From: an uncultured delta proteobacterium
GTDB taxonomy: Bacteria > Desulfobacterota > Desulfobacteria > Desulfobacterales > JAHEIW01
Length of the DNA stretch: 64,000 nt
Direction of reading: 5' to 3'
Assembly (NCBI GenBank): GCA_963706575.1
Contig: CAVPNL010000015.1
Location: 96,001 to 160,000 of the forward strand
Shown here: positions 8,746 to 26,923 of the stretch, in pieces
Layout of the letters: each line of letters opens with the position of its first letter
Numbering within the stretch: the stretch's first letter is position 1
The notes under the pieces: generated by a model
Seen by the model: the letters and a program-made list of their open reading frames with translations, nothing else
What the model was told of the DNA's origin: nothing
The model's database searches: none
Position numbers and translations under genes: made by a program

Positions 8746-8835
8746 CAAGGCGATGTGTGGATCCCGCTAAACGGGAGAATAATTGCCGTGATCTACCATC
8801 TTTGAGATGGGTCTAATAAAAATGGGAAGTTTGAG

Positions 8836-9084: not shown

Positions 9085-9269
9085 GTGCAGATTTGTTCTC
9101 GGAACAACACCAGTCAGCTGTAGGCACGAATCGTAATAATCTCAACCTCGTATTAATTTTCATGCATATTTTAGAGTTAATTTTAGATAGAAGTGGTTTC
9201 AAAACCTCAGATCAGGTTTCCCGCTTTAACGCGGGATTGCACATCTTTTTAAGCAAATTAAGGTGTGCA

Positions 9270-9426
9270 TCAAGGCAAGGCGTCACGCGAATTGAAAGTC
9301 GTGTGTCCGAGCGTACACGTTAGTACGTGAGTATTTTAATTCGTGGGACAACGCAGCCATTGGACCTTTTGAGCCCCTTAACTAATCTTTCAATTAGATG
9401 CGAAATCCCGCTTCATTAAGCGGGGA
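9270..9426 (+). repeat. Intergenic repeat with gagcgtac-N-gtacgtgag core (degenerate copy)
   Basis: caaggcg...gagcgtacacgttagtacgtgagtatttt...caacgcagccattg, shared with copies at 40764, 59074, 61009 and 63627. Confidence 0.7.
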
Positions 9427-9468
9427 GATGGGGTTTTGAAGCCGCTTCTTAAAGAAAGGAGTGTAACT

Positions 9469-9948: not shown

Positions 9949-11789
9949 TGAATGCATGGGTGGGTAAGATTTTAAGAGTCAATTTAACGAAGGGGGCTAC
10001 ATCGGTTGAGGAACTAAACGAGGAATTTGCCCGTGATTATATCGGCGGACGGGGCTTGGGTGTCAAATACCTTTACGATGAGATCGATCCCAAAGTCGAT
10101 CCGTTGGATCCCGGTAATAAGCTCATCATGGTGACCGGCCCAATGACCGGCACGGGTGCCCTGGCGGGTGGCCGCTATACCGCTGTCACGAAATCCCCTT
10201 TAACCGGAGCGATAGCCAATTCGAATTCAGGAGGATATTTTGGTGCTGAATTGAAATATGCGGGTTACGACATGATCATATTGGAGGGCAAGGCCAAAAC
10301 GCCGGTTTATCTGTGGATCGAAAATGACAGCATCGAAATTCGCAAGGCCAAGCATCTCTGGGGCATGGAAACGCAGCAGACAACCGAAACAATTCTATCC
10401 GAAACGGATGTGGAAGCCAAAGTGGCCTGTATCGGACCGGCGGGTGAAAATCTGGTTAAATTTGCATGCATTATGAACGATAACGGCAGGGCCGCCGGAC
10501 GATCGGGTGTCGGAGCTGTGATGGGATCCAAGAATCTCAAAGCCGTGGCGGTCAGAGGGACCCAGGGCGTTACGGTGGCCGACCCTGAAGGTTTCAGAGC
10601 CGCCGTATTGGATGCCATCAAAGAGTTTCATGATCCGTATATGTCAGAAGTTCTGGCACAGTACGGCACTTCGGATGTGGTCGAGTTTTCAAACGAGGTT
10701 GGTCTGCTTCCCACCCGCAATTATCAGACCGGCGTATTTGAGGGGGCATCGAAGATCGGCGGTACGGTGATTGCGAAATACAATCTCAGAGGTGCCGCCA
10801 AAACCAAGGCCTGCTTCGGGTGCCCCCTGGCCTGCGGCCGGGTGACCCGTGTCGCGGATGGAGAATTTAAAGGCGCGGGCGAAGGGCCGGAATATGAAAC
10901 ATTGGGCGCCTTCGGCTCTGCCTGCGGGGTCGACAACCCCGAAGCCGTCATCAAAGCCAATTATATTTGCAACCGCATGGGCATGGATACAATTTCGACC
11001 GGTGTTACGATTGCCTGCGCTATGGAACTTTTTGAAAAGGGTTATTTACCTGAGAAAAAGGTGGGGCGCAAACTGGCTTTCGGTGATGGCCAGGCGGTGG
11101 TTGAATTAGTCGAAAAGGCCGCCCGGCGGGAGGGTTTTGGCAATGAGATCGCCGAAGGATCCTATCGGCTGGCAACAAAGTATGGCCATCCCGAGTTATC
11201 CATGTCCGCCAAGAAGCTGGAATTTCCCAGTTATGACCCCAGAGGCGGGCAGGGTTTTGCCCTGGCATATGCGACCTCAAACCGGGGCGGGTGTCACATC
11301 CGCAACGAAGTTCATTGTGTCGAATTTTTTGGCATCTCGCTGATGGGTATTGTCAAAACAGGTGATAATTTAGATCGCTTTAGCACCAAAGGCAAACCGG
11401 CGGTTGCCAAAAAGATTCAGGATTTTTATACGATGATCGACTCATCCGGAATCTGCAATTTTATCATCATTGGTTCACCGGATGCCAATGTCTTTATCAA
11501 TCTCATGGAAAAAGGGACAGGCTTAGATTTCGGCGGATTGAACGGTTTTCTGAAAACGGGCGAACGGATCTATAATATCGAAAGGCTTTTTAATCTCAAG
11601 GCCGGCCTGACGGCTAAAGATGACACCTTACCGAAGCGTATGTTAACAGAACCGATGCCCGAAGGTCCCGGCAAAGGCGAGGTGGTTCATTTAAGTGAGA
11701 TGCTGCCGGAGTATTACAAGCTTCGGGGGTGGACCGTAAAGGGGGTCCCCTCTGCAAAGAAGCTGGCGGAACTCGGAATCGCTACTTAA
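9948..11789 (+). CDS. aor: Aldehyde ferredoxin oxidoreductase (W-AOR family) 1
   Basis: GKILRVNLT, KSPLTG, AAGRSGVGAVMGSKNLKA, CFGCPLAC, EGPEYET, YDPR, NRGGCH. Confidence 0.95.
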   Translation: MNAWVGKILRVNLTKGATSVEELNEEFARDYIGGRGLGVKYLYDEIDPKVDPLDPGNKLIMVTGPMTGTGALAGGRYTAVTKSPLTGAIANSNSGGYFGAELKYAGYDMIILEGKAKTPVYLWIENDSIEIRKAKHLWGMETQQTTETILSETDVEAKVACIGPAGENLVKFACIMNDNGRAAGRSGVGAVMGSKNLKAVAVRGTQGVTVADPEGFRAAVLDAIKEFHDPYMSEVLAQYGTSDVVEFSNEVGLLPTRNYQTGVFEGASKIGGTVIAKYNLRGAAKTKACFGCPLACGRVTRVADGEFKGAGEGPEYETLGAFGSACGVDNPEAVIKANYICNRMGMDTISTGVTIACAMELFEKGYLPEKKVGRKLAFGDGQAVVELVEKAARREGFGNEIAEGSYRLATKYGHPELSMSAKKLEFPSYDPRGGQGFALAYATSNRGGCHIRNEVHCVEFFGISLMGIVKTGDNLDRFSTKGKPAVAKKIQDFYTMIDSSGICNFIIIGSPDANVFINLMEKGTGLDFGGLNGFLKTGERIYNIERLFNLKAGLTAKDDTLPKRMLTEPMPEGPGKGEVVHLSEMLPEYYKLRGWTVKGVPSAKKLAELGIAT

Positions 11790-12041: not shown

Positions 12042-13280
12042 ATGAAAACTAAACGTTTTTTTATAATTGCTGGTTTAATGGTTTCAATTTTATTCAGCCT
12101 CCAGGCAATGGCGGCGGAACCGATTAAAGTGGGCGCACCCAATCCGCTTACTGGGGCCTACGCTTCTGACGGCAATGTGATGTTGAACGCGACGGAAATG
12201 GCCGTGGCCGATATTAATGCCAAGGGCGGGCTATTGGGGCGAAAACTCGAAGTTGTCTCTTTTGATGTCGAAGATATGCTGCCTGAAAAACTGATTTCGG
12301 CTGCAGAAGTCCTGGTCGTAAAGGAAAAAGTTGATATGGTCGTCACCGCCTGCAATGCCATGGGTCCGGACGTACAGGCTTTTGGCAAGTACGATGTCCC
12401 TTACATCAACAATAATGCCTCCACTGTTGCCACGGGAATGGTGAAAGATGATCCCGCTACCTATTTTAATGTCTTCCAGGCCGGTGATAACGAGCCGGCT
12501 TATGTTTCAAAAACCATCGAAACATTCATGGGCTTTGGTTACAAACTGCCCAACAAGAAGATGGCCGTGGTTTACAGTGAATACGATTGGGATAAAAAGA
12601 TCGCAGGGGCCTTAAAAGAACAGGCCAAGCAATACGGTCTCGATCTGGTCATATATGAACAGACGCCCGCCGCCACCAATGCCTGGGGCCCCATCCTGAC
12701 AAAAATTCGGGCCCATGACCCCGCTCTGGTATTTTTGAGCATCTACGCCCCTGAAAGCATTGCCGCTTTTGCAGATCAATACCTGCAAAACCCGACGAAT
12801 TCTCTGGTGGACCTGGGCTATGCCGTCTCCATCCCCTCATTTATGGAGATTGCCAGCAAATACGCCGATGGGTTTACCGGCTATGCGGCCCTGGCAATTC
12901 CACCCGAAATGACGGCAGAAGGTCAGGCCCTGGAAGCCAGATACAAAAAAATGTTTAAAACCGATTCCATGCCATTCAGCGTTGTACCCTGTGTATATGA
13001 CGGCGTAATGGCCTGGGCGGCAGCGGTTGAAAAGGTCGGTGATGTAAAAGATTACAAAGCCGTATCGGTCACCATGAAGACCAATCGCTATAAAGGCATC
13101 GGCGGGGTATACGACTTTAATAATCCGCGCCAGGCTGCCAGAGCTGGGGACGATCTGTTACCGGTCAATCTTTTTCAAGCCCAAAACGGCAAACTCGTGC
13201 TGCGCAACCTGGGTAGTAAGACAATATCGCCATATCAGCTGCCGCCTTGGTTAAAAGAACCGTGGCCAAAGGCTCAGTAA
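12042..13280 (+). CDS. ABC transporter substrate-binding protein (LivJ/HAAT family)
   Basis: Signal peptide; PIKVGAPNPLTG, INAKGGLLGRKLE. Confidence 0.9.
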   Translation: MKTKRFFIIAGLMVSILFSLQAMAAEPIKVGAPNPLTGAYASDGNVMLNATEMAVADINAKGGLLGRKLEVVSFDVEDMLPEKLISAAEVLVVKEKVDMVVTACNAMGPDVQAFGKYDVPYINNNASTVATGMVKDDPATYFNVFQAGDNEPAYVSKTIETFMGFGYKLPNKKMAVVYSEYDWDKKIAGALKEQAKQYGLDLVIYEQTPAATNAWGPILTKIRAHDPALVFLSIYAPESIAAFADQYLQNPTNSLVDLGYAVSIPSFMEIASKYADGFTGYAALAIPPEMTAEGQALEARYKKMFKTDSMPFSVVPCVYDGVMAWAAAVEKVGDVKDYKAVSVTMKTNRYKGIGGVYDFNNPRQAARAGDDLLPVNLFQAQNGKLVLRNLGSKTISPYQLPPWLKEPWPKAQ

Positions 13281-14044
13281 TGGCAAGCAGCGCGAATTTT
13301 AATCCCAAAGATGGACAGATGGGGGCGCAAGCCCCCATCCTTCAAGTCCGGAATCTCTCCAAGGCCTTTGGGGCCATGATGGCCGTCAACAATTTAAGCT
13401 TTGAGATTCCCGCCGGCGAAGTATTTGGTATTGCCGGACCCAATGGCGCCGGAAAAACGACGGTCTTCAACCTGATCACCGGGTTTTTACAGGGGACCGG
13501 CGAAGTGCGCTTCGAAGATAAAAATGTGACGAATCTCAAACCGTATCAGATTTGTCACCGGGGAATCGCACGGACGCTTCAAATTCCGCAGGTCTTCACA
13601 ACCCTTGATGTGTTTAACAATGTCAGATTTGGCGCCCATTTCGGCAACAAACGGCTAACGGATGGGAATGAAGCGGAAATTATCCACCGGGCCTTAGATT
13701 TCGTTGGATTGCAGGATGACAAAACAGCAATCGCCGAGAATATGGACCTGTTTCATAAGAAGCTGATTATGATCGCAGCGGCGCTTGCGACCCAGCCACG
13801 CTTATTGTTACTCGATGAGCCCATCGGCGGTCTGAGCCCGACGGAGATCGATCCGCTCATGGAACTCATCCGCAAGATCAACCAGGAATTGAACATCACC
13901 GTCATTATTATCGAGCATTTAATGAAGGTGCTTAAAAAGCTGTCGCATCGCCTGATGATCCTGCACTACGGGGAAGAGATTCGAACCGGACCCCCGGCGG
14001 AAGTCATGGAAGATGAAAAAGTAAAAGAAGTTTATCTGGGTTAG
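13280..14044 (+). CDS. livG: ABC ATPase, LivG-like
   Basis: GPNGAGKTT, GIARTLQ, LLLLDEP. Confidence 0.88.
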   Translation: MASSANFNPKDGQMGAQAPILQVRNLSKAFGAMMAVNNLSFEIPAGEVFGIAGPNGAGKTTVFNLITGFLQGTGEVRFEDKNVTNLKPYQICHRGIARTLQIPQVFTTLDVFNNVRFGAHFGNKRLTDGNEAEIIHRALDFVGLQDDKTAIAENMDLFHKKLIMIAAALATQPRLLLLDEPIGGLSPTEIDPLMELIRKINQELNITVIIIEHLMKVLKKLSHRLMILHYGEEIRTGPPAEVMEDEKVKEVYLG

Positions 14045-14054
14045 GAGAACCGTT

Positions 14055-14759
14055 TTGCTCGAATTAAAGCACATCAATACCTATTACGGCCAATTTCATG
14101 CCATCAGAGACGTTTCCTTTAAAATTAATCAAGGCGATTTATTCCTGGTTGTGGGGCCCAACGGGCATGGAAAGAGCACTTTGCTGAAAACGATATGCGG
14201 CTTGCTGCGGACGGCTTCAGGTCAAATCGTTTTTAACTCGACCGAAATTACCCGATTGGCGACGGATCAAATCGTGGCGATGGGCCTGGTTTATGTGGCC
14301 GAGGAACGCCATCTCTTTCCCCAGATGACCGTTCTCGACAACTTGAAGCTCGGTGCCTATAACATGCAGGCCCGGGCCAAAGAACGCGAAACCCTCGAAT
14401 ACGTCTTTCATTTATTTCCGCGTTTAAGCGAATTTCAAAATAGATATGCAGCAACCCTGAGTGGTGGTGAAGCAAGGATGTTAACCCTGGGCCGGGGCAT
14501 CATGTCCTGTGCCAAGCTGTTGGCGATCGATGAGCCGTCCTTTGGGTTAGCCCCCATTCTCAGAAATGACGTATTTGATAAGATCAATGAGATCAATTCC
14601 AATGGGTTGACCGTTCTTCTGGTAGAGCAAAACGTTAATCAGGTAGTGGACTTCGCTGACAGAATCTGCCTGATCGAAGACGGATGTATCGTCTTCGACG
14701 GCCCCAGAGAAGAAGCCCTGCTGAACGAACATGTTAAAAATGTATTTCTAGGTGGATAA
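14055..14759 (+). CDS. livF: ABC ATPase, LivF-like
   Basis: GPNGHGKST, LSGGE, IDEPSFGL, LLVEQN. Confidence 0.88.
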   Translation: MLELKHINTYYGQFHAIRDVSFKINQGDLFLVVGPNGHGKSTLLKTICGLLRTASGQIVFNSTEITRLATDQIVAMGLVYVAEERHLFPQMTVLDNLKLGAYNMQARAKERETLEYVFHLFPRLSEFQNRYAATLSGGEARMLTLGRGIMSCAKLLAIDEPSFGLAPILRNDVFDKINEINSNGLTVLLVEQNVNQVVDFADRICLIEDGCIVFDGPREEALLNEHVKNVFLGG

Positions 14760-14764
14760 TATAA

Positions 14765-15646
14765 ATGAATATTTGGGTTCAACAGATCATTCAAGTGATT
14801 ATTAGTGGGATTGTGACGGCTTCGGCATATGCAATTATGGGTATCGGATTATCGGTCATCTATGGCATATCACGCGTATTTAATTTTGCATACGGGTCGT
14901 TTTTTACCTGGGGGGCCTATTTTGCCTGGTTTTTATTCGCCACATTTTCGTGGATGAATTATCCGCTGGTTTTTTTGATTGTGGTGCCCGGTATGTTTTT
15001 TCTAGGAATGGGTACCGAACGCGTCGTGGTCCGGTCCCTGCGCTGGCGCAAAAACTGGCAGGTGACTACCATGATGGTTACGCTGGGGCTGGCTTTTTTT
15101 ATGGACAATCTGGCGATGGTCGTTTTCGGCGGATTTGCCAAACCGCTGCCCCCTCTTTTTCGCGGCGCCATAAACCCTTTTGGTTTCACCTTAAGCGTGC
15201 AGGATTTGGCCATGCTGATTATCGCCATATTGGTGATCGTCGTCTTTGGCTTATTTCTGTCCAGAACCCGGGTGGGAAGATGCATGCAAGCCATCTCTCA
15301 GGATATGACCGGAGCCGAAATCGTCGGAATTCCGATAAAAAAAATATTCAGCTACACCTTCGGATTATCAACCGCGCTGGTGGGAACCGGTGGCATTCTG
15401 CTGGCACCGAGGTATTTCATTACCCCCCACGGCGGCTGGGCACCTTTTTTTCGGGTTTTTGTTATCGTTGCTTTCGGCGGCCTGGGTAGCATTCGGGGAA
15501 CCCTCTATGCGGCATTTATCCTGGCTATTTTTGAGTCCTTTATTTCCTGGGGGCTGGGCGCCACCTGGGTAATGCCTTTCTGGTTTTTGGTCTTCTTGGG
15601 GGTGCTGGCATTTCGACCTTCAGGATTAATGGGAACGTGGGGTTAA
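14765..15646 (+). CDS. livH: ABC permease, LivH-like
   Basis: GLSVIYGISRVFNFAYG, FGGLGS, RPSGLMG. Confidence 0.88.
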   Translation: MNIWVQQIIQVIISGIVTASAYAIMGIGLSVIYGISRVFNFAYGSFFTWGAYFAWFLFATFSWMNYPLVFLIVVPGMFFLGMGTERVVVRSLRWRKNWQVTTMMVTLGLAFFMDNLAMVVFGGFAKPLPPLFRGAINPFGFTLSVQDLAMLIIAILVIVVFGLFLSRTRVGRCMQAISQDMTGAEIVGIPIKKIFSYTFGLSTALVGTGGILLAPRYFITPHGGWAPFFRVFVIVAFGGLGSIRGTLYAAFILAIFESFISWGLGATWVMPFWFLVFLGVLAFRPSGLMGTWG

Positions 15647-15651
15647 GGGGA

Positions 15652-16665
15652 ATGATGAAAATACAAATGCGACAAGAACTGGTCGTCTTTTTGGCCATGT
15701 ACCTCATTTTGCTTTTTTTGCCTGTGTTTCTATACAAGGATGCATATGTCATTGGGATTCTCATCACCTGTATGATCTGGGGGGCGATGGCATCGGTTTG
15801 GAATTTTACCATGGGGTATGCCGGTATCTTCACCTTCGGTCAGTTTGGTTTTTTCGTTGTGGCCGCGTATACCTCCGGCATGGTGACCAAATACCTGGGA
15901 ATATCTCCCTGGCTGGGCATTTTGATAGGTGGATTGATGGCCGCGCTGGTGGGTGTCCTCATCGGCCTGCCGTGTATGAAATTAAAAGGAGCCTACATCG
16001 CTTTAATTACCTTTGCACTGCACCTGGTTGTGGCGCCGATGATAAAAGTGGCCGACCCGCTGGGCACCGGCGGCAGCACCGGCCTGATGTCCATTCCAAG
16101 TTTAAATCTGGGCGCATATACGTTTTCGCGTACCGATCTTATTCCGTGGTATTATACCGCTCTGGTAATATCCTTTTTGGTCCTTTTTGTTGTTTATAAA
16201 ATCATTTTTTCCTCGGTTGGTTTAGGATTTATCGGTCTGCGTGATTCCGAGGACTTTGCCAAAACCCTGGGGATAAATGAATATAAGTACAAACTGCTGG
16301 TATTTGGCCTTTCGGCTTTTTTAACCGGAATCATGGGAGGGTTTTATGCGCATTATGCCGGCATCATATCTCCCCGATTGTTGGGTCTTGATATCTTTCT
16401 TTTGGTGATGCTCATGCTGATTATCGGGGGCATGGGGATATTTCCAGGCGCCTTTTTAGGCGGGTTTATTATTCTTTTCTTAAATGAGTTTTTACGTCCG
16501 TTGGCGGCCTATCGTTTCCTGATTTTTGGTGCGATTGTGATTGTGGCAATTAAACTGATGCCGGAAGGGATTCTGGGCCATCTCAACATTTTCAAGAACC
16601 GAATGGGAAAGCGTTTGCTGGGCAGACCTGCTGAAGCGGAATCGACCAGAGGCCAAAATGTTTAA
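15652..16665 (+). CDS. livM: ABC permease, LivM-like
   Basis: WNFTMGYAG, LKGAYIALIT, IIGGMG, MPEGILG. Confidence 0.88.
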   Translation: MMKIQMRQELVVFLAMYLILLFLPVFLYKDAYVIGILITCMIWGAMASVWNFTMGYAGIFTFGQFGFFVVAAYTSGMVTKYLGISPWLGILIGGLMAALVGVLIGLPCMKLKGAYIALITFALHLVVAPMIKVADPLGTGGSTGLMSIPSLNLGAYTFSRTDLIPWYYTALVISFLVLFVVYKIIFSSVGLGFIGLRDSEDFAKTLGINEYKYKLLVFGLSAFLTGIMGGFYAHYAGIISPRLLGLDIFLLVMLMLIIGGMGIFPGAFLGGFIILFLNEFLRPLAAYRFLIFGAIVIVAIKLMPEGILGHLNIFKNRMGKRLLGRPAEAESTRGQNV

Positions 16666-16794
16666 ACGATGGCGCCCTACCCTCCGCCTCTGGTGATGGC
16701 GAACAGGAGTTTAGGACCAGGGTGAATCATGGCGCAAAGAAAAGTTTAAGCAGTATTTCAACCTTTAAAACATTTGCAGAACAGGAGAAAATTT

Positions 16795-18057
16795 ATGAGC
16801 TCTAAAGCAAAGAATGAAATTTTAAGTGAACAGCGAAACCGATTTATATCTGAAGGCGTGGCCAGTGTAACGCCCCTGTATGTCGAATCCGCCAAAGGGG
16901 CGATTATCAAGGATGTCGACGGCAGAGAATACATCGATTTCGCGGGTGGCATTGCGGTCATGAACATCGGGCACAGTCATCCCAAGGTGGTCGCGGCCAT
17001 AAAGGATCAGGCCGAAAAATTCACGCATACCTGCTTTATGGTCAATCCATATGAATCGCCGGTAGCGCTGGCAGAAAAGCTCTGTCTGCTGACGCCGGGC
17101 GATTTTGCCAAAAAGGCGATTTTCCTGAACTGTGGTGCCGAAGCAGTTGAAAATGCGGTTAAGATTGCCCGTTATTATACCAAAAGACCCGCCATTATCG
17201 TTTTTGAAAACGCCTATCACGGCCGCACCCTTCTGACCATGACGATGACGAGCAAAGTCAAGCCCTATAAATTCGGATTTGGCCCCTTTGCACCCGAGGT
17301 GTACCGCATGCCTTTCGGCGATGAAGTGGGACCCGAAAAACTCCATGATTTTTTTGTTAAACATGTCAATCCTGAAGCGGTGGCAGCTGTTGTTGCTGAA
17401 CCGGTTCAGGGTGAAGGGGGCTTCATTGCGCCACCGCCCGGCTATTTTCAGGAGTTAGCCAAGATCTGCAAAGACAATGGCATTCTTTTCGTGGCGGATG
17501 AAATTCAGAGCGGTATGGGGCGTACCGGAAAAATGTGGGCCATTGAGCACTGGGATGTCGAGCCGGACCTGATTACGGTCGCAAAAAGCCTGGCTGCCGG
17601 CATGCCGCTGGCTGCCGTCATCGGCAAACAGGAGATCATGGACGCCGTCCATCCCTGGGGGTTGGGCGGAACTTACGGCGGAAACCCGGTGGCATGTCGT
17701 GCCGCACTGGCGGTGCTGGAAGTTTTCGAGGAAGAAGGCCTGGTTGAAAAGGCAGCGGTGCTGGGGCAAAAACTGAAAGCGCGCTTTGAAAAGTGGCAGG
17801 AGCAATTCGCGATAATCGGAGAAATCAGAGGCCTGGGTGCCATGCTGGGTCTGGAGTTGATCAAGGGCGACAATCAGCAACCCGCCGCGGATGAAGCCAA
17901 ACAACTGGTGAATTTCTGCTATGAAAAAGGGCTGGTGATCCTGGCCTGCGGCAGCTACGGTAACATTATTCGGATTCTGGCACCGTTTGTGATTACGGAT
18001 GAACAATTGGAGCAGGGTCTTGCCATTATGGAGGAAGGGCTTTCGGCCCTCTCGTAA
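16795..18057 (+). CDS. gabT: 4-aminobutyrate/5-aminovalerate aminotransferase-like (class III)
   Basis: YIDFAGGIAVMNIGHSHP, THTCFMV, GAEAVENAVKIAR, YHGRT, DEIQSGMGRTG, AKSLAAG, GGTYGGNP. Confidence 0.9.
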   Translation: MSSKAKNEILSEQRNRFISEGVASVTPLYVESAKGAIIKDVDGREYIDFAGGIAVMNIGHSHPKVVAAIKDQAEKFTHTCFMVNPYESPVALAEKLCLLTPGDFAKKAIFLNCGAEAVENAVKIARYYTKRPAIIVFENAYHGRTLLTMTMTSKVKPYKFGFGPFAPEVYRMPFGDEVGPEKLHDFFVKHVNPEAVAAVVAEPVQGEGGFIAPPPGYFQELAKICKDNGILFVADEIQSGMGRTGKMWAIEHWDVEPDLITVAKSLAAGMPLAAVIGKQEIMDAVHPWGLGGTYGGNPVACRAALAVLEVFEEEGLVEKAAVLGQKLKARFEKWQEQFAIIGEIRGLGAMLGLELIKGDNQQPAADEAKQLVNFCYEKGLVILACGSYGNIIRILAPFVITDEQLEQGLAIMEEGLSALS

Positions 18058-18084: not shown

Positions 18085-18390
18085 TTGGCAAACTTTGCTG
18101 AGATCAAACAGAATCTGGATCCGTCTTTTCATTATATTATTTTCGAAAAGACCGTAAACCCGGCTGACGGACCGGATTTCAGCGAGATCAGCGCTTTTAT
18201 CATGCGCTATCAGAAGGCCGTGATCGAACAGGAGGTGCATCGCGATCCAACCGGAAAGCATCTTTTGCTCGTTGTTAAATTAAACGCGGATGAAGTGGAT
18301 GAGATTTCACAGGAAATCCTAAATCTTACGTTCGCGGAGGATATCACGGTTTATGTTTACGGCCGACGCCCAAGCATTGAAACCGCTTGA
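18085..18390 (+). CDS. Hypothetical protein (101 aa)
   Basis: Strong RBS gaggagg and TTG start; fills the gap between gabT and mtbB. Confidence 0.7.
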   Translation: MANFAEIKQNLDPSFHYIIFEKTVNPADGPDFSEISAFIMRYQKAVIEQEVHRDPTGKHLLLVVKLNADEVDEISQEILNLTFAEDITVYVYGRRPSIETA

Positions 18391-18429: not shown

Positions 18430-19816
18430 ATGGGAAAAATTTTTACCCGTTACGGTGACGGGACGCCCACTGAAATGAGCGAAAGTGAGCTCAGGGCGGA
18501 TCTGGAGGCCGGCACCGCGGACGCAGCGGATCGCGGCAAAATACCGCCGTTATCCGAAGATGAGCTAAACCATCTATTCGATATTTTTAGCTCCCCCTAT
18601 AAATTTATCAGCGTGGAGCCCGGGCAGGAAATCGTTTTGACCTATGATGGCGCTCACGTGAAAATGCGGCGCCACGGAATCAATGTCGAGCGAATTCAGG
18701 GCCTGCAGATTTATGAAAAGATCATGGGTGCCGACACATTGGAACTCTGTCATGTTGACTATAGTTTCAAACCCATCAAGCCCATGATTACCTTTGAACA
18801 GCCGGTCATGGAACAGGCCCTTTTGGTCACCCATGCACCGATGTTTTACGGCGCCATGCCCAATCTTGGCCTTTACTCCCAGCCGGACGGTCCCTTCCCA
18901 AATCCGTCCGAGCTGATGCCGGCCGGAAAAATCGAAGAGGCCCAGGAGTCCCATGAGAAATCCGTCGAAGCAGCGGTCAAAGATATCGTTTTTATCGGCT
19001 GCTGCATGATTGAATGCGGGGCCGACGGGATTAACATCGACTCGACGGGCGCGGCCGGCGATGCCGATTTTCTGGCGGCGCTGTTGGCCACCCAGCAGCT
19101 TGAAGGAAAAATACCCGGACACCTGCATTGAGATCGGTATGGCCGGTGAATTTATTCTGGGGATGCATGCCGGCTTGGAATTTGAAGGCACCCGGCTGGC
19201 CGGCCTTTACCCCCACGATCAGGTAAAGCTGGTCGAAAAAGCCGGTGGAACGATCTATGGCCCGGTGGTCAACACCAATACCACCCAGTCCACCCCCTGG
19301 AATGTCGCCCGGGTGGTTACGTTCACCAAGGCGGTTGGCGAAGTCGCCAAAATCCCCATTCATGCCAATATGGGCATGGGTGTCGGTGCCGTCCCCACCT
19401 GCGATCATCCCCCCATCGATACCGTCTCCAGGGCTTCCAAGGCCATGGTCGAAATTTGCCGATTGGACGGGTTGTAGGTGGGCGTCGGCGATCCCTTCGC
19501 CATGGCGCTTGCTCACGCACACGCTTCGGGCATGGGCGGAATGCGGACCTCCGGAGATCTGGTCGCCCGCATGCAAATGACCCGCGGCATGAAAATTCAA
19601 GAAGCCAAAGAGTATGTCGCCAATAAACTAAATTTATCGATTCCCGAAATAACCGACCCGGTCATTATGACCGAGGTCAGACAGGACCTGAAGCTGGGTT
19701 GCATGTCGCCCCAGGCCGGTGATGCTCACGGAATCGAGGCCAAGTTCCGAATTGCCGAGGTTCTGGGTATCGAGATCAATTGTGTCAACAAATTTAAAAA
19801 CAAAGTTGCGTTTTAA
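18430..19816 (+). CDS. mtbB: Dimethylamine:corrinoid methyltransferase (MtbB family), pyrrolysine at TAG 19475-19477; +1 frameshift at ~19100
   Basis: TRYGDG, DYSFKPIKP, YGAMPNLGLY, IDSTGAAGDADF, EIGMAGEFILGMH, HANMGMGVG, and LDGL-TAG-VGVGDP, matching the MtbB DGI-O-IGVGDP motif; continues RTSGDLVARMQ. Confidence 0.95.
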
Positions 19817-19848: not shown

Positions 19849-20503
19849 ATGTTAGATGAAAAGATCATTGAAGAAGCAATGCAACTGATTATTCAACAGA
19901 ACAAGGAAGCGGCAGCCAAACTGGCCCAAAAGGTCATATCTGAAGGCGTCTCTCCCATTGAATTATTGAACGAAGGATTTATTCCCGGGATCAATAAGGT
20001 TGGCGATTTGTTCGGGCGCGGCGAGCTGTTTCTGCCGGAATTGATTAAAGCGGCCGATACCATGAAAACGGTTACCGATATCGTCAACGAAGCGATCGCA
20101 GATGGCCCGGACAAACCGGAGGCCCAGGCGAAGGTTGTTATCGCCACGGTCAAAGGTGATGTTCACGATATCGGCAAAGCGATCGTGGTCTCATTGATGC
20201 GAGCCAACGGATTTACCGTTTATGATCTGGGGCGCGATGTCGAAACGGATAAGATCATCGAAGAAGCGCAAAAAGGTGGATGCAGACATCATCGGCACCA
20301 GCGCCCTGCTGACGACCACCATGCCCAAGCAGAAAGAGCTTGAAGAAGCGCTCAAAAGCGCCGGCTTGAGGGATCGTTTTAAAACGGTGGTCGGCGGTGC
20401 CCCGGTGACCCCTCGCTGGGCGGCCCGGATCGGTGCCGATGCCTATGCCGAAGATGCTCAGGACGGTGTTTTGAAAGTAAAAGAGCTCCTCGCACAGTCG
20501 TAG
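19849..20503 (+). CDS. mtbC: Cognate corrinoid protein (MtbC-like); +1 frameshift at ~20270-20277
   Basis: LFLPELI, TVKGDVHDIGK (B12 His), DLGRDV, then GTSALLTTTM and VGGAPVT in the shifted frame. Confidence 0.9.
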
Positions 20504-20594
20504 GCGGCTACCGACTTTAAATCCTTGTTGACATTTATCGGATTCCATTGTCGGCGTGCCCATTACTGATGCGCCGACAATGACAGGGGGAAAC

Positions 20595-22361
20595 ATGCAC
20601 GGATTTTACAACCGAATATTAAAAATCGATTTAAGTCAGAAGAATTTTTCAATCGAAGCCCTCGGCGATGAAATCCCGCAAAGCCTGCTGGGCGGCAAAG
20701 GATTGTGTTCGCATCTTTTATTCAATCTCAATCCTCCGGGAGTCGATCCATTATCCCCGGAAAACTGTTTGATATTTGCCACCGGACCCAGCGCGGGAAG
20801 CACCATCTGGGGGTCGTGCCGCTACGGGGTGTTTACCAAGTCGCCCCAGACCGGGTTTTATTCGGAATCTTATTCCGGTGGAACGGTACCAGAGGCCATC
20901 GACAGCACCGGCTTTGATGCCATTGTCATTCAGGGAAAATGTGCCGACCGCACCGTCCTGGCGATTCACCCGGATGGTGTTGATTTCCATGATGCCGGCG
21001 ATATCTGGGGAATGGAAACATACGCCGCCGAAGATGCCGTAATGGAACGTTTCGGCAAATCCGATGATCGTTATCGGCGAAAAGGCGCGGTGGTGATCGG
21101 ACCCGCCGGTGAAAAGCTGGTCTGCTTTGCAGTGATTGAAAACAACTATTGGCGTTCGGCGGGAAGAACCGGCGTCGGCACGGTCATGGGCGCCAAACAG
21201 ATCAAAGGCATTTTGTTTCAGGGCGATCAGAAACGCTCGCTTTATGATGAAAAAGCGGTGCGCGAATTTTCAAAGAATCTGTCGGCAGAAGCCAAAGACA
21301 GCCCGGCCACCAATGCCTATAAATCGCTGGGAACGCCTATGATGGTTAAACTGATAAACACCGCCGGTGCGTTTCCGACGCGTTACTGGTCGGAAGGCGT
21401 ATATCAAGATTGGGAAAAGATCAGCGCCGATGCCTTGAATGAAAGATGCGACGTCAAGCCGCATGCCTGTCTCAAGTGTTTTATGGCCTGCGGGCGCATG
21501 AGCACCATCAAGGAGGGTCGTCATAGCGGTCTTAAGATCGAGGGCCCGGAGTATGAAACCATTTATGCCTTCGGGGGACTGTGCCTGATCGACAGCATCG
21601 AGGAAATCGCATATCTCAATGATGTTTGCGATCGCTTAGGCGTCGATACGATCACGGCCGGCAATTTATGTGCCTTTACGATTGAAGCCGCCCGGCAGGG
21701 CCGCATCGATTATAAAATCGATTACGGAGAGGTGGACTCCATTGCGGAATTACTTCATAAAATCGCCTTTAGAGAAGACATTGGTGATATACTGGCCGGC
21801 GGAATCAAGCAGGCGGCGAAACAATGGCAACTGGAAGACATAGCGGTTCACGTCAAGGGTCTGGAGCCGGCGGGATATGATCCGCGCGCGCTCAAAGGAA
21901 TGGGTCTCAGCTACGCCACCTCGGATCGCGGCGCGTGTCATTTAAGAGCGACGTTTTATAAACCGGAAATCAGTGGTATGATCCCGCCGGAGCAAATTGA
22001 AGGCAAAGCCGAGCTTTTTTTGGACTTTGAGGATCGCTTAACCCTTTTCGATACGATGATTCTTTGCCGGTTTTATCGTGACTTTTACGACTGGGATCAG
22101 CTGGCAAAGATGATTTACGCGGTGACCGGCATCGATGAAGGCAAAGAAGGGCTGCAGCAAAGGGCCCGACAAATTGCCGACCTCATCCGGCGTTTCAACT
22201 TGCGGGAAGGATTAAAGCCCGAAGATGACCGGCTGCCGAAGGTCTTTCACCGCAAACTGGAAAATTCCGGGCAGGTCATTACGGAAGAAGAGCTCGAAAC
22301 CATGCTGCAGGATTATTACCGGCTGCATGGCTGGGATCAAAACGGTATCCCTGCCAGCTGA
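20595..22361 (+). CDS. aor: Aldehyde ferredoxin oxidoreductase family 2
   Basis: GFYNRILKIDL, KSPQTG, SAGRTGVG, CLKCFMAC, EGPEYET, YDPR, DRGACH. Confidence 0.95.
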   Translation: MHGFYNRILKIDLSQKNFSIEALGDEIPQSLLGGKGLCSHLLFNLNPPGVDPLSPENCLIFATGPSAGSTIWGSCRYGVFTKSPQTGFYSESYSGGTVPEAIDSTGFDAIVIQGKCADRTVLAIHPDGVDFHDAGDIWGMETYAAEDAVMERFGKSDDRYRRKGAVVIGPAGEKLVCFAVIENNYWRSAGRTGVGTVMGAKQIKGILFQGDQKRSLYDEKAVREFSKNLSAEAKDSPATNAYKSLGTPMMVKLINTAGAFPTRYWSEGVYQDWEKISADALNERCDVKPHACLKCFMACGRMSTIKEGRHSGLKIEGPEYETIYAFGGLCLIDSIEEIAYLNDVCDRLGVDTITAGNLCAFTIEAARQGRIDYKIDYGEVDSIAELLHKIAFREDIGDILAGGIKQAAKQWQLEDIAVHVKGLEPAGYDPRALKGMGLSYATSDRGACHLRATFYKPEISGMIPPEQIEGKAELFLDFEDRLTLFDTMILCRFYRDFYDWDQLAKMIYAVTGIDEGKEGLQQRARQIADLIRRFNLREGLKPEDDRLPKVFHRKLENSGQVITEEELETMLQDYYRLHGWDQNGIPAS

Positions 22362-22431: not shown

Positions 22432-22505
22432 GGGGGGTGGATCGCAATGTGATCGTGTGGACTCTAAATCCACATAGGCGGGTGCAACTCCCGTACTCCC
22501 CGCCA
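22432..22505 (+). tRNA. pylT: tRNA-Pyl (anticodon CUA, 22464-22466)
   Basis: GGGGGGT acceptor pairing with ACTCCCC-GCCA; D-stem GATC/GATC; 6-bp anticodon stem TGTGGA/TCCACA; loop CTCTAAA; 3-nt variable loop; T-loop lacking TTC; directly upstream of pylSc. Confidence 0.96.
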
Positions 22506-22557
22506 TTCAATTTTTATCAGGGTATAAATCCCTTATTCGGATCAAAAGAGGGTCTTG

Positions 22558-23400
22558 ATGGTTACATGGACAGAAACGCAACTGAGGCGCTTGCAGGAAC
22601 TGGATGTATCCGAGTCCGATTTGAATCAACACTTCGAAAATACTGATGACCGGGAAAACGCTTTTCAAGAGATCGAAAAAAAGCAAGCGCAAGAATTGCG
22701 CCAACGGCTGAAAACGTTTCGCGAAGTCGATTTCAGACCCGGACTGTGCAGGCTGGAAGCCAGATTGGCCGACACATTGATCAAACAGGGCTTCGTCCAG
22801 GTCACCACGCCGATCATGATGTCGAAAGGCCTGTTGCAAAAGATGTCTATCGATGCCAAACACCCGCTGAATTCACAGATATACTGGCTTGATAAGAATA
22901 AGTGTTTGCGCCCCATGCTGGCACCCCATCTGTATTATGTTCTGGTAGATTTGCTGCGCCTGTGGGACAAACCGGTCAAAATTTTTGAGGTCGGTCCCTG
23001 TTTTCGCAAGGAATCTCACGGTGCCCAGCATTCCAGTGAATTCACCATGCTCAATTTGGTCGAAATGGGGCTGCCCGCCGATCAACGCAAAGATAGGATA
23101 AAAGAGCTGGGGGCCCTGGTTTCAGAAGCAGCAGGCATTAGCGAATACCACTTTGAGAAGATAACCTCCGAAATTTATGGCGATACTATCGATATTGTGG
23201 CCGGAGAGGATCAGGTAGAGGTCGGTTCGGCTGCCATGGGTCCGCACCCGCTGGATCGTCCCTGGAAAATAACGGATACCTGGGTCGGAATCGGCTTTGG
23301 GCTTGAAAGGCTGCTGATGGTTGCACAAAACAGCAACAGTTTAGCAAAAATGGGCCGTAGCCTCACCTATTTAGACGGCATCCGGTTAAATATTCAATGA
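22558..23400 (+). CDS. pylSc: Pyrrolysyl-tRNA synthetase catalytic domain
   Basis: WTETQLRRL, GFVQVTTP, CLRPMLAPHLY, FEVGPCFRKESHG, EFTMLNLVEMG, YGDTIDI, GIGFGLERLL. Confidence 0.97.
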   Translation: MVTWTETQLRRLQELDVSESDLNQHFENTDDRENAFQEIEKKQAQELRQRLKTFREVDFRPGLCRLEARLADTLIKQGFVQVTTPIMMSKGLLQKMSIDAKHPLNSQIYWLDKNKCLRPMLAPHLYYVLVDLLRLWDKPVKIFEVGPCFRKESHGAQHSSEFTMLNLVEMGLPADQRKDRIKELGALVSEAAGISEYHFEKITSEIYGDTIDIVAGEDQVEVGSAAMGPHPLDRPWKITDTWVGIGFGLERLLMVAQNSNSLAKMGRSLTYLDGIRLNIQ

Positions 23401-24524
23401 GACCTAAAGTGAACGTTAAGAACAACGGGCAACATTTTGAAGCCCTCCTCGTTAAATTAAAAGCGGAAGAAAATCTTTCAAAAGCCGAGATCAGGTTTCT
23501 GCTCAACCTTGACGATGGCGATAAGATCGATGCGCTTTTTCAAGAAGCCCGTGACAGACGCCAAAAGTATTTCGGCAACAAAGTCTTCATGTATGGATTC
23601 ATTTACGCCAGCACCTATTGCCGCAATGATTGCAGCTTTTGTCTTTTTCGCCGGTCGAATTCGCAAACGAAACGATACCGGAAATCAAAACAGGAAATTG
23701 TTGCAGCCGCCTTACGCCTGGCGGATTCCGGCGTTCATTTGATCGACCTGACCATGGGTGAAGATCCCGCCATTTTAAACGGCGGTGGGGCCGGTTTTGA
23801 ACAACTGGTTGATCTGGTCAGCACATTGCAAAAAGAGACGGGTCTTCCGATAATGGTTTCTCCTGGGGTGGTCCCCACACATGCCTTGCAACAATTGGCC
23901 GCAGCAGGTGCGGTCTGGTATGCCTGTTACCAGGAAACCCACAGCAATTCACTGTTTAACAAACTGCGGCCCGGCCAGGACTATCACAACCGCATGCAGA
24001 GCAAAGTTGACGCACACCATCTCGGTTTACTGGTCGAGGAAGGGCTGCTCTGCGGGGTCGGTGAAACCACAGATCATATAGCCCGATCGATCGACGCCAT
24101 GAAAAAATTGAGAGCGGATCAGGTGCGGGTGATGAACTTTGTGCCGCAGCCGGGTACGCCGATGGCAGGACAAGCGCCGCCGGATCCGCTGAGAGAGACA
24201 TTGATTGCTGCCGTCATGCGCCTCGTTTTTCCAGATAAGCTGATTCCGGCTTCATTGGACGTGGAAGGGATTGCCGGGTTAAAGCGCCGTTTGAATTCAG
24301 GTACAAATGTGGTCACATCCATCGTGCCCCCCGGTGAAGGTCTGGTTGGGGTGGCCCAGCATTCGTTGAATATTGAAGAAGGCGGACGTACAGCGGCGTC
24401 TGTGAAAAACGTGCTGAAGCGCCTCGGGCTGGAACCGGCCACCCGCCAAGAATACCAGAACTGGGTCCGTCGCCGCCAACAGGCCATCGCCAACAGCAGA
24501 AACAGCAGGGAGGTCGCGTGTTAG
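23397..24524 (+). CDS. pylB: Methylornithine synthase (radical SAM)
   Basis: CRNDCSFC, SGVHLIDLTMGED, WYACYQETH, QVRVMNFVPQPGTP, IPASLDVEG. Confidence 0.96.
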   Translation: MRPKVNVKNNGQHFEALLVKLKAEENLSKAEIRFLLNLDDGDKIDALFQEARDRRQKYFGNKVFMYGFIYASTYCRNDCSFCLFRRSNSQTKRYRKSKQEIVAAALRLADSGVHLIDLTMGEDPAILNGGGAGFEQLVDLVSTLQKETGLPIMVSPGVVPTHALQQLAAAGAVWYACYQETHSNSLFNKLRPGQDYHNRMQSKVDAHHLGLLVEEGLLCGVGETTDHIARSIDAMKKLRADQVRVMNFVPQPGTPMAGQAPPDPLRETLIAAVMRLVFPDKLIPASLDVEGIAGLKRRLNSGTNVVTSIVPPGEGLVGVAQHSLNIEEGGRTAASVKNVLKRLGLEPATRQEYQNWVRRRQQAIANSRNSREVAC

Positions 24525-25675
24525 TCGCCGTTGCCGGCGGAAATCTTCAGGGCGTAGAAACGGCGTACCTATCGCAAAAGGCGGGCTGGGACGTTCTCGT
24601 AATGGATCGCAAACCGATGGTACCGGCAACGGGGCTATGCGATACTTTTGTTCAGCTGGATATGACCTCAGAAAAAGATTTAGCGCAGGCCCTAAGTGGT
24701 GTTGATTTGGTCATTCCCGCGCTGGAGAACGATGCTGCCCTGGCCTGTTTAGGCCGGGTGACCCGCAACAATGGGATTCCATTTGCTTTTGATCCTGCCG
24801 CTTTTGCCATATCCTCCTCCAAAATACAATCTGAGCAGCTCTTTAAGCAAACCGGTGTCCCGACTCCCGCCCGTTGGCCAAAATGCAAATTCCCGGTCGT
24901 CGCCAAACCTGACCGGGGAAGCGGCAGCCAGGGCGTAACGGTATTTAATAATATTACCGATCTGCAGAACACCCTAAAACCACCAAACCCGCAATGGCTG
25001 ATACAGGAATTTATCCACGGGCCATCGTATTCTTTAGAAGTCATCGGATCGCCGGGTCACTATACCGTGCCCCAGGTCACCGATTTAGCAATCGATGCGC
25101 AATACGACTGCAAGCGTGTGACCGCACCATCAAGCCTGGCGGGTGAGCTGATCTTAAAATTTGAAGCGCTCTCGCTGGCGCTGGCGGATGCCTTAAACCT
25201 GAACGGCATAATGGATGTGGAAGTCATTTTGTCTGAAGATGAACTAAAGGTGATTGAAATTGATGCGCGCTTACCCAGCCAAACACCGACAACGGTTTAC
25301 TGGTCGACGGGTTTGAATATGGTCCAGTTATTGGGAGACTTTTTTTTAAACCGACAGACTCGCATTCAGCCGAATTCGACTAATGAATATGGCGTGATCT
25401 ATGAACACGTGAGGGTGGCATCAAATCATCTTGAAATTGCCGGCGAACACATCATGTCCGGAACGGATGCCCTTCACGTATACCCGGATTTTTTTGGCGC
25501 AGACGAGGCCATAACGAATTATGCTACGGGCCGCGACGATTGGGTCGCCACATTGATTGTTGTTGAAAAAAATGTGGAAGCCGCCTGGGACAAACGCAAT
25601 CAAATCATTGCGGATATTAAAAAAAGGTTTAAGCTGGAAATTTATCTGGATTCAGTCACGCAAGAAAAAACTTAG
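24518..25675 (+). CDS. pylC: 3-methylornithine--L-lysine ligase (ATP-grasp)
   Basis: GGNLQGVE, GPSYSLEVIG, YDCKRV, EIDARLPSQTPT, GEHIM. Confidence 0.96.
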   Translation: MLVAVAGGNLQGVETAYLSQKAGWDVLVMDRKPMVPATGLCDTFVQLDMTSEKDLAQALSGVDLVIPALENDAALACLGRVTRNNGIPFAFDPAAFAISSSKIQSEQLFKQTGVPTPARWPKCKFPVVAKPDRGSGSQGVTVFNNITDLQNTLKPPNPQWLIQEFIHGPSYSLEVIGSPGHYTVPQVTDLAIDAQYDCKRVTAPSSLAGELILKFEALSLALADALNLNGIMDVEVILSEDELKVIEIDARLPSQTPTTVYWSTGLNMVQLLGDFFLNRQTRIQPNSTNEYGVIYEHVRVASNHLEIAGEHIMSGTDALHVYPDFFGADEAITNYATGRDDWVATLIVVEKNVEAAWDKRNQIIADIKKRFKLEIYLDSVTQEKT

Positions 25676-25685
25676 GAGACCACCT

Positions 25686-26537
25686 GTGACCCGACTGATA
25701 AGCGCTGACATCAGCGATATCGCCGCCAATTTGCAAAATTATGACAGGGAATTGGTGGCCAGAACGGGTTATTCCCTGAGCGGTATTGCCTGTCGTGCCG
25801 CTGAAATCGATGAAGCGCAGATCAAGAATTTACTGCCCGAAATTCGGGTGGGAGTCATACCGATCTCCAGCGGCGAAGGGATCATCGGCGGTTTCGGCGA
25901 TGCCGTTTTGAACATTCTTTTCCACATGGGTGCTAACGCCTTTGTAACCCGGACGACGGATGTCGCCGGAATTGTCGAATCCTATGAGAAAAAAGCAGAT
26001 ATGATAATGCTGGCCGATGATGAGCGCTTTGTGGCATTGCATATTCGAAGTCGCTCAATCGCTGACAATGCGGTTTGCACCGGCAACGCCTTTGCAACCG
26101 GATTGCGATTGATGGCCGGCAGCCTGAAAGGGCAAAAGGTGCTGGTCATCGGCTGTGGTCGGGTGGGGCGCAGCGTAACGGAGGCTTTGATCCTTATGGG
26201 TGCCCGGGTTTCAGTTTACGATGTTAAGATTGAACCGTTAAAGGAATGGGTCAAAACGGTAGATCAAACAGCTGATTCGAAGATTCAGATAGTCCAAAAA
26301 TTGGACTCCGCCTTGCAGCGTCACCAATTTATCATCGATGCTTCGCCGGCCCGCAACATTATCCATGCGCATCATATTACACCGGATACATATGTTAGCG
26401 CGCCCGGGGTTCCGTGCGGATTGGACGCCGAAGCAAAAGAGAGATTATCCAGTCGATTTTTGCACGATCCGCTTCAGCTAGGCGTCGCAACGATGCTGGT
26501 CAGTGCGGCCAAAGGCCACTGCGAGCGGCAACAATAA
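25686..26537 (+). CDS. pylD: Pyrrolysine synthase (3-methylornithyl-N6-L-lysine dehydrogenase)
   Basis: TRL N-terminus, VIPISSGEGIIGGF, TDVAGI, ADDERFVA, GCGRVG, LHDPLQLGVATM; RBS aggag. Confidence 0.95.
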   Translation: MTRLISADISDIAANLQNYDRELVARTGYSLSGIACRAAEIDEAQIKNLLPEIRVGVIPISSGEGIIGGFGDAVLNILFHMGANAFVTRTTDVAGIVESYEKKADMIMLADDERFVALHIRSRSIADNAVCTGNAFATGLRLMAGSLKGQKVLVIGCGRVGRSVTEALILMGARVSVYDVKIEPLKEWVKTVDQTADSKIQIVQKLDSALQRHQFIIDASPARNIIHAHHITPDTYVSAPGVPCGLDAEAKERLSSRFLHDPLQLGVATMLVSAAKGHCERQQ

Positions 26538-26560: not shown

Positions 26561-26923
26561 ATGCAAAATTCAGGTAAAAAAGCCGCGAAACGATTCTATC
26601 GCAAGCGCGTCGATCTTTTTCGGCTCATTGATAAAATAAAATTGTGGCCGTCGCGCAAAGGTATTTTGCATGGCATCCGGACCATTCAAAAGATAGGGGA
26701 CCAGGCCCAGATTACCACGCATTGTAACAAAACATTTCTGGCAAACGATTCCCGCAACAGCCGGGCCGCTCGCTGGTTAAGAAATAAATGGTTTAAGGAT
26801 GTCTGCCCGATCTGCCGGATTCCGGATTGGAAGCTGGAAAAATATTCATCAACCCAGTTCAAGCGCCATTACGGATCGGCTCTGCTGTCGGAGGATGAGT
26901 TGGATAAAAAAAACGGCGATTAA
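26561..26923 (+). CDS. pylSn: Pyrrolysyl-tRNA synthetase N-terminal (tRNA-binding) domain
   Basis: KIKLWPSRKGILHGIR, ITTHC, DSRNSRAARWLRNKW, CRIPDWKLEKYS. Confidence 0.96.
   Translation: MQNSGKKAAKRFYRKRVDLFRLIDKIKLWPSRKGILHGIRTIQKIGDQAQITTHCNKTFLANDSRNSRAARWLRNKWFKDVCPICRIPDWKLEKYSSTQFKRHYGSALLSEDELDKKNGD

Follow-up and report, generated by a model that had tools for sequence, protein, structure and literature searches.

The 64,000-nucleotide stretch of DNA analysed here (hereafter the window; contig CAVPNL010000015.1, positions 96,001 to 160,000 of the forward strand) comes from an uncultured delta proteobacterium of the order Desulfobacterales (JAHEIW01). It contains an MtbB-family methyltransferase gene with an in-frame amber codon at the position of the catalytic pyrrolysine (Pyl), followed by a corrinoid protein gene and the genes for Pyl biosynthesis and decoding. 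That this codon represents a real Pyl site, of a known kind, is close to certain. Recoding of Pyl-MtbB genes in Desulfobacterales-type bacteria has been known and is hence ordinary; the new points are the module in which the gene is embedded, consisting of a GABA transaminase gene (gabT), mtbB, the corrinoid protein gene (mtbC) and a gene for an aldehyde:ferredoxin oxidoreductase (AOR), and the substrate to which this module points. We give an even chance to the proposal that the substrate of the enzyme is not dimethylamine (DMA) but an omega-(N-methylamino) acid, with 4-(methylamino)butyrate or a 3-hydroxy analogue derived from carnitine as the probable candidates.

An amber codon at the pyrrolysine position of MtbB

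The following elements of the window make up the Pyl system:

18430..19816, plus strand: mtbB-family methyltransferase gene (461 codons in orthologues; extra base at ~19099), matched by PF09505 and TIGR02368 on both halves
19475..19477, plus strand: in-frame amber codon at the MtbB pyrrolysine position, corresponding to residue 349 of the intact orthologue and profile position 356
19475..19574, plus strand: match to Rfam PYLIS_2 (RF02509), 65.2 bits against a gathering threshold of 36
19849..20503, plus strand: cognate corrinoid protein gene, MtbC-like by profile matches (extra base at ~20268; TAG stop)
22432..22505, plus strand: tRNA-Pyl gene (pylT), anticodon CUA, 2955 bases downstream of the TAG
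22555..23400, plus strand: pylSc, catalytic subunit of pyrrolysyl-tRNA synthetase (TIGR02367, 329 bits)
23397..24524, plus strand: pylB, TAG stop (TIGR03910, 486 bits)
24518..25675, plus strand: pylC, TAG stop (TIGR03909, 427 bits)
25686..26537, plus strand: pylD, with a predicted start (TIGR03911, 253 bits)
26561..26923, plus strand: pylSn (TIGR03912, 126 bits)

The frame around the amber codon reads EICRLDGL-TAG-VGVGDPF, placing the codon in the conserved motif of the Pyl column of the MtbB family (DG[IL]-O-[IV]GVGD), and continues for 112 sense codons to a TAA at 19814-19816. Translated with read-through, positions 19010-19813 match positions 228-463 of PF09505 (E 9e-110) and positions 230-465 of TIGR02368, with the TAG falling on position 356 of the latter, which we take to be the Pyl residue of Methanosarcina MtbB. 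Among 94 near-full-length homologues from genomes, archaeal ones included, a TAG is the sole internal stop at this column in 93, with Leu in the remaining one; metagenome homologues show a single TAG in 79 of 80 cases and a TAG plus two TAA codons in the other. A full-length MtbB without Pyl, carrying Leu (TTG) at this column and passing TIGR02368, is found in a Clostridia metagenome-assembled genome (MAG; L137:8001-9377). The first-pass annotation of this DNA had read the TAG as the Pyl codon of an MtbB-family gene, with 112 more codons of MtbB sequence behind it and the decoding machinery 3 kb downstream, and had suggested an alignment to methanogen MtbB. The profile position, the homologues and the intact downstream frame bear this out, and over the C-terminal half the TAG aligns without gaps to the TAG of the homologues from Methanimicrococcus blatticola (56% identity) and a Methanosarcina (59% identity).

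Both halves of the window gene lie above the PF09505 cut-off of 25 (270 and 368 bits). Taken singly, they score below the TIGR02368 cut-off of 369 (192 and 301 bits), which an intact orthologue with 90-91% identity to the window gene (L012) passes with 504 bits. The cassette pylT-Sc-B-C-D-Sn is complete, and its pylSc, pylSn, pylB, pylC and pylD genes are intact and all above the NCBIfam cut-offs. Given the conservation of the TAG in homologues and the adjacent tRNA-Pyl and pyl genes with scores above their cut-offs, a chance origin of the site can be dismissed. The PYLIS_2 match lies inside coding sequence and may therefore reflect mtbB homology alone.

Judged from its sequence context, the amber codon is likely read as pyrrolysine in vivo. 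A genome-wide reassignment of TAG is ruled out, since it terminates 633 of the 2780 long open reading frames (ORFs) of the genome; it also ends pylB, pylC and the corrinoid gene. Thus, TAG is still an ordinary stop in this genome, so that its decoding would be ambiguous or conditional. When the 25 longest TAG read-through extensions were inspected, most reached the start of the next gene, in a crude scan that leaves room for other Pyl proteins. At the TAG stops of pylB, pylC and the corrinoid gene, amber suppression would append C-terminal tails to proteins of the Pyl pathway itself.

A gabT-mtbB-mtbC-AOR module in one clade of bacterial MtbBs

While the Pyl codon and the adjacent cassette of the first-pass annotation stood, it had overlooked two frameshifts, treated further below, and the aminotransferase and aldehyde oxidoreductase genes among which mtbB lies:

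16774..18057, plus strand: 4-aminobutyrate aminotransferase, gabT type (TIGR00700, 571 vs 507 bits; fails PRK06918)
18085..18390, plus strand: 101-aa ORF without a Pfam or NCBIfam family, kept in close orthologous loci and under purifying selection
20556..22361, plus strand: AOR-family gene (family match), second copy, directly 3' of the corrinoid gene
12042..16665, plus strand: branched-chain-amino-acid-type ABC transporter, five genes (Pfam), upstream of gabT
7438..11789, plus strand: genes for a flavoprotein, a ferredoxin-like protein and the first AOR (profile matches), predicted to form a three-subunit aldehyde oxidoreductase
2581..4065, minus strand: MttB-family methyltransferase without amber codon, a candidate for the first (quaternary-amine) step, whose place is kept in the relatives G007, G015 and G005

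The order on the plus strand is thus flavoprotein, ferredoxin, AOR, ABC transporter, GABA transaminase, 101-aa ORF, mtbB, corrinoid gene, AOR and pyl genes, with the non-Pyl mttB on the opposite strand, 14 kb upstream of mtbB. No second GabT copy reaches E<=1e-100 in this genome, and the Atlas matches of the 101-aa ORF were all below 0.9. Homologues of the ABC transporter also adjoin an aminotransferase-MtbB pair in a Dehalococcoidales locus (L127). In three runs, contigs from RNA libraries extend from gabT to pylB; as contigs are no proof of transcription, we do not use them as support.

Of 61 related genomes, 19 contain MtbB matches, with 1 to 12 per genome; across the class, 22 of 301 genomes have matches. 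For all counts, sequences (rows) matching over fewer than 380 residues were removed beforehand; the trees exclude the window's own split protein, for which orthologues with 86-95% identity stand in, and are midpoint-rooted for drawing. They separate an archaeal-like clade (27 rows, comprising all methanogens and some Desulfobacterales paralogues) from a bacterial side, on which the orthologues of the window protein form a 36-row clade (support 98 and 0.89 in two trees). This clade spans several families and includes Desulfocicer vacuolatum and Desulforhopalus singaporensis, and two cultured type strains share the gabT-mtbB-mtbC-AOR order. The archaeal-like Desulfobacterales paralogues, often arranged as Pyl-mttB, mtbB and mtbC and never found beside gabT, are the natural and better candidates for DMA methyltransferases. 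The richest genome, G026 (4.3 Mb; L160-L170), has twelve MtbB matches, with arginase-family, amidohydrolase, M24 peptidase, beta-oxidation, aminotransferase and ABC-transporter genes as neighbours.

The gene context follows the tree. In 22 of the 34 testable clade rows, mtbB is preceded on its own strand, at a distance of <=500 bp, by a class-III aminotransferase gene (18 of them at >=50% identity to the window GabT), compared with 0/19 rows in the archaeal-like clade and 2/40 other rows, and an AOR gene is found within 2.5 kb in 14/23, 0/18 and 1/26 rows, respectively. All seven neighbouring aminotransferases with >=50% identity that were scanned pass the TIGR00700 cut-off. In a replicate with metagenome sequences, counted by hand, the aminotransferase accompanied 7/12 clade members vs 1/47 others, and the AOR 6/10 vs 0/15. 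This set was fetched after the idea had formed, repeats earlier rows in 3 of its 80 and includes no archaeal-like rows; clade membership was defined by the common ancestor of the original 36 rows, and a prior, narrower definition (27 rows) gave 4/4 vs 4/55. Since the rows are kin, we claim no p-value.

Further genes recur near mtbB. A second tartrate/D-malate dehydrogenase paralogue, distinct from the housekeeping copy, lies beside it in four genomes (G001, G011, G022, G023). Two loci (L047, L052) combine non-Pyl MttB, Pyl-MttB, corrinoid, gabT and Pyl-MtbB genes in one row; both types of MttB are found there and at L081, L082 and L091, and one locus has a BCCT transporter. A dimethylglycine-dehydrogenase-like gene, belonging to a family that includes the 4-methylaminobutyrate oxidase of nicotine degraders, follows mtbB in 8/56 clade rows. 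It encodes 814 aa and lies directly after mtbB at L043, L044, L045, L046, L195, L198, L202 and L203, often followed by a second mtbB.

Proposed substrate and pathway

The gabT/AOR context calls DMA into question as the substrate of this enzyme. Demethylation of DMA would, moreover, yield methylamine, yet just one of the 19 MtbB-bearing genomes has an MtmB gene with a TAG, and of the 36 MtmB matches in the 61 related genomes, 35 lack it. Such TAG-less homologues could possibly be quaternary-amine enzymes like MtqB, as described in the available text of PMC13044021. In the relative G007 (97% complete), which has kept its pyl genes, the three families MtbB, MttB and MtmB yielded a single Pyl client, namely this MtbB; neither a Pyl-MttB nor any MtmB was found.

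In the pathway that we propose, the secondary amine would add to the imine carbon of Pyl, much as in MttB and MtmB. The Co(I) form of the corrinoid protein encoded next door would accept the methyl group, which would continue through a pterin-binding methyltransferase to tetrahydrofolate and into the Wood-Ljungdahl pathway. The freed primary amine, of the GABA type, would then be transaminated by the upstream GabT, and the resulting semialdehyde oxidised by the downstream AOR to succinate or, in the carnitine series, to D-malate; a conversion of carnitine-derived malic semialdehyde to D-malate has been described (PMC11353897, available text). Starting from the parent betaine, a non-Pyl MttB would take the first methyl group and a Pyl-MttB the second. 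This assignment fits the chemistry outlined in the accessible part of PMC9842639: a quaternary amine has no lone pair, whereas the imine of Pyl is open to addition by tertiary and secondary amines. There is slightly less than an even chance that Desulfobacterales in sediment use a three-enzyme ladder on butyrobetaine or carnitine (non-Pyl MttB, Pyl-MttB and Pyl-MtbB), through which carbon flux would continue to GABA transaminase and AOR. Consistent with this idea, neither a succinate-semialdehyde dehydrogenase nor CutC was found above cut-off in the genome (assembly 92% complete).

A predicted active-site loop that differs from that of methanogens

An AlphaFold2 model of the G007 orthologue, with Lys at the Pyl site, shows a (beta/alpha)8 TIM barrel (pLDDT 91, pTM 0.91). 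Among the fold matches listed, the predicted fold is nearest to barrels of the MetH, BHMT and MtaA type, the best being the homocysteine domain of MetH (Z 18.6, rmsd 3.2, 251 aligned) and another the M. mazei methyltransferase 4ay8 (Z 17.9). MttB and MtmB structures are absent from these matches, which leaves room for kinship with them, and no solved MtbB emerged when the PDB was searched by sequence, using the C-terminal half, the one match (E 0.51) being due to chance.

From the topology of the model, and in our own strand numbering, Pyl349 would lie on strand 8, with the segment after strand 1 adjacent to it on the catalytic face. In all 36 clade rows, this segment has 13 residues and a net charge of +2 or +3 (K78-x-R80-R81). 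It has 19-20 residues and a net charge of -1 in 11/11 methanogen rows, and 19 residues and a charge of 0 to -2 in 15/15 archaeal-like bacterial rows. For a substrate that is longer and anionic, a lid that is shorter and basic would be suitable.

Weighing the substrate

Several observations weigh against the assignment to an omega-(N-methylamino) acid. The gabT linkage is found mainly within one clade of kin and may represent a single inherited arrangement rather than repeated selection. Even there, the adjacent aminotransferase is missing in 12/34 genome and 5/12 metagenome members that could be tested, and several members have a Pyl-MttB gene directly upstream, as would an operon for trimethylamine (TMA) and DMA (L081, L082). 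GabT itself does not need the MtbB enzyme: its nearest relatives, at 80-83% identity, belong to four genomes of the genus that yielded no MtbB (G003, G004, G012, G021), and are accompanied there by neither mtbB nor AOR. The intact orthologue passes the dimethylamine-methyltransferase equivalog TIGR02368 (504 vs 369 bits). The short basic loop is common to most other bacterial MtbBs, including those of Bacillota in mtbB-mtbC-mttB operons, and is thus a sign of divergence from methanogen MtbBs that is not specific to this substrate. Finally, the genome lacks an mtbB-linked D-malate dehydrogenase, at an assembly completeness of 92%. Set against the conserved gabT-mtbB-mtbC-AOR module, these points leave a change of substrate about as probable as its absence.

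The protein may instead be an ordinary Pyl-containing DMA:corrinoid methyltransferase that produces methylamine, with gabT and AOR nearby through co-regulation or inheritance only. We consider this rather unlikely, although it would explain the equivalog score and the 56-59% identity to methanogen homologues in the C-terminal half, and although DMA is the sole MtbB substrate given in the available text of PMC9842639. It would also agree with Pyl-MttB genes that are often close by, one being present in this genome, and with close relatives that carry GabT without mtbB. However, the separate archaeal-like clade in the same order, often arranged as mttB-mtbB-mtbC, offers a better DMA candidate, and the presence of up to 12 divergent MtbBs per genome, beside unrelated catabolic genes, is hard to reconcile with a single substrate. 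In addition, no CutC was found above cut-off in five genomes with this orthologue, and G007 has no Pyl-MttB.

It is improbable that the substrate is a different secondary N-methylamine (examples would be an N-methylated polyamine, 5-(methylamino)valerate and N-methyltaurine) or that the enzyme has a broad range that includes DMA. GabT-type enzymes and AORs are promiscuous, the aminotransferase beside mtbB is a different omega-aminotransferase in four clade members (L094-L096, L098), and the dimethylglycine-dehydrogenase-like gene after mtbB in part of the clade (8/56 rows) may likewise speak for other amines. The aminotransferase of the window, by contrast, passes the GABA-transaminase cut-off, the basic loop favours an anionic tail and the link to D-malate dehydrogenase points to C4 chains.

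Two frameshifts as probable assembly errors

As assembled, mtbB contains a +1 frameshift at ~19099, upstream of the TAG, which places the N-terminal half (18430-19131) in another frame than the TAG half; decoding the TAG would thus not suffice to obtain the complete protein from this sequence. One extra base, at ~20268, interrupts the corrinoid gene. The sequence comparisons make it very probable that both are single-base insertion errors of the assembly, and the mtbB gene is probably intact in life. This reading is favoured by relatives without the extra bases, by low dN/dS values and by the frequency of frameshifted genes in this assembly. The mtbB orthologues are intact in G005, G007, G014 and G015, with 86-95% identity to the window halves, and a 2074-base query from the window covers 2072 bases in G014 and G015. 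Short-read contigs of relatives lack the extra base at 19099 in every run that covers the site (6/8 runs), and contigs that lack a base at 20268-20276 occur in 8/8 runs, in X16 making up about half of the depth. Both mtbB halves show dN/dS values of 0.05-0.15, similar to those of gabT and AOR, and none of their 93 highly conserved columns is altered. In a control of orthologous loci, 6/217 were shifted in this assembly vs 0/228 in G007; a larger test found 14/305 loci hit (~4.6%), on five contigs and mostly in unrelated genes, with one extra base in 16 of the 17 events. A further single-base insertion lies at window position ~104, and pseudogene calls from this assembly are unreliable.

There is a slim chance that the extra bases are real and that the gene is a recent pseudogene of this strain, in which case the TAG would never be reached in frame, whichever substrate the ancestral enzyme had. 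The short-read contigs come from relatives, none of them demonstrably of the same strain, and two frameshifts fall within 1.2 kb, with one more in a Pyl-MttB gene (C15:59295) located 54 kb upstream of the window mtbB. The frameshifts thus hit three Pyl-system genes on the contig, mtbB, mtbC and Pyl-MttB, which is above the 4.6% background. Four further genes in the same 130 kb are likewise shifted, so that 7/73 tested loci in the first 130 kb of the contig are affected. On the other side, the identical single-base-insertion signature recurs at 11 other loci on five contigs and at none of the 228 loci of a relative, selection is not relaxed, and neither the pyl genes nor the second mtbB is disrupted. 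Programmed frameshifting is ruled out by relatives without a shift at ~19099 or ~20268.

Comparison with known systems and significance

The first-pass annotation had considered an MtbB as Pyl client less usual in bacteria. This was overstated. According to the available text of these reports, the delta-1 symbiont of Olavius algarvensis has Pyl in six MtbB genes, two MttB genes and no MtmB gene (PMC1976440, 2007), and Pyl-containing DMA methyltransferases occur in many marine Deltaproteobacteria, for which methyl transfer to tetrahydrofolate was proposed (PMC8318568, 2021); as noted above, 19 of 61 related genomes have a match. The organism studied here resembles these bacteria in being a sulfate-reducing deltaproteobacterial host with split pylSc/pylSn, several MtbB copies and UAG as a still common stop. 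In their accessible parts, both papers describe the genes as methyltransferases for methylamine or DMA, and these parts mention neither a linkage to aminotransferase or AOR genes nor another substrate.

The window protein resembles the MtbB of Methanosarcinales (PF09505, TIGR02368) in that its intact orthologue matches the family from end to end, in the amber column and in the adjacent corrinoid gene. It differs in belonging to a bacterial clade and in the segment after strand 1, which is six residues shorter and basic. Its gene is flanked by gabT and AOR instead of amine permease and mttB genes, Pyl-MtmB is absent here, and the methyl sink would be tetrahydrofolate rather than coenzyme M.

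A metabolic parallel is provided by MtyB and MtcB of Eubacterium limosum, non-Pyl MttB-family enzymes that demethylate butyrobetaine and carnitine (PMC8604678). As described in the available text, this organism demethylates butyrobetaine once, to 4-dimethylaminobutyrate. Neither the di- nor the monomethyl product supports its growth, and the authors call the fate of these products unknown. In both systems, C4 betaines would be demethylated through a corrinoid protein and the methyl group handed to tetrahydrofolate, and the proposed pathway would begin with such an enzyme; the MtbB enzyme, in contrast, is of another family, uses Pyl and would perform the last step. A precedent for a shift of substrate within a methylamine-methyltransferase family is MtqB, a non-Pyl MtmB homologue that acts on tetramethylammonium and choline (PMC13044021, available text), although Pyl was lost there and is kept here.

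In the literature that we searched, which included few subscription papers and some sources only in part, no substrate other than DMA and no aminotransferase link was assigned to any Pyl-MtbB. If our proposal is correct, this would be a Pyl enzyme with a substrate beyond mono-, di- and trimethylamine, of which the same literature held no case, and Pyl would be a general catalyst for N-methyl secondary amines. The bacterial MtbB paralogues would then form a family with different substrates, not duplicates of the dimethylamine enzyme, which would explain why up to a dozen of them are kept while Pyl-MtmB is nearly never present. The pathway would also supply a fate for demethylated butyrobetaine and carnitine, described as unknown in the MtyB study (PMC8604678), and would allow anaerobic betaine mineralisation without the release of TMA to methanogens. 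Pipelines that score every Pyl-mtbB as dimethylamine use may over-call this trait.

Further features of the genome and the window

The closest titled homologues come from MAGs of Desulfobacterales or Deltaproteobacteria, and the genome encodes DsrA, acetyl-CoA synthase (ACS), a pterin-binding methyltransferase and three RACo activators. Its other amine methyltransferases comprise a second, intact Pyl-MtbB on contig C3, one frameshifted Pyl-MttB and ten MttB genes that lack a TAG. Three MtmB homologues, likewise TAG-less, each adjoin a corrinoid gene (C12:17244, C4:159896, C13:86199). The second Pyl-MtbB (C3:346000-355300; L017) sits on a long branch, preceded by genes for an M24 peptidase and an arylmalonate-decarboxylase-family protein and followed by genes that, from their sequence, resemble 2-hydroxyacyl-CoA dehydratase and its activator; this differing catabolic context again suggests another substrate.

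The region C15:1-130000 constitutes a large methylated-amine island, in which six or more MttB genes are accompanied by several corrinoid genes, a gene for a pterin-binding methyltransferase, dimethylglycine-dehydrogenase-like genes and a glycyl-radical enzyme gene that stays below the CutC cut-off. Within the window, the non-Pyl mttB and a GntR regulator gene are flanked by an opine-dehydrogenase-family gene and a second class-III aminotransferase gene (5398-6492 and 908-2092), and genes for a FadL-type outer-membrane protein, a phosphodiesterase and a sulfatase lie on the minus strand right after the pyl cassette (27177-31883). A tRNA-Sec gene is located at C3:141925-142022, so that both non-standard tRNAs are present, as in the dual-code Deltaproteobacteria described in the available text of PMC8318568.

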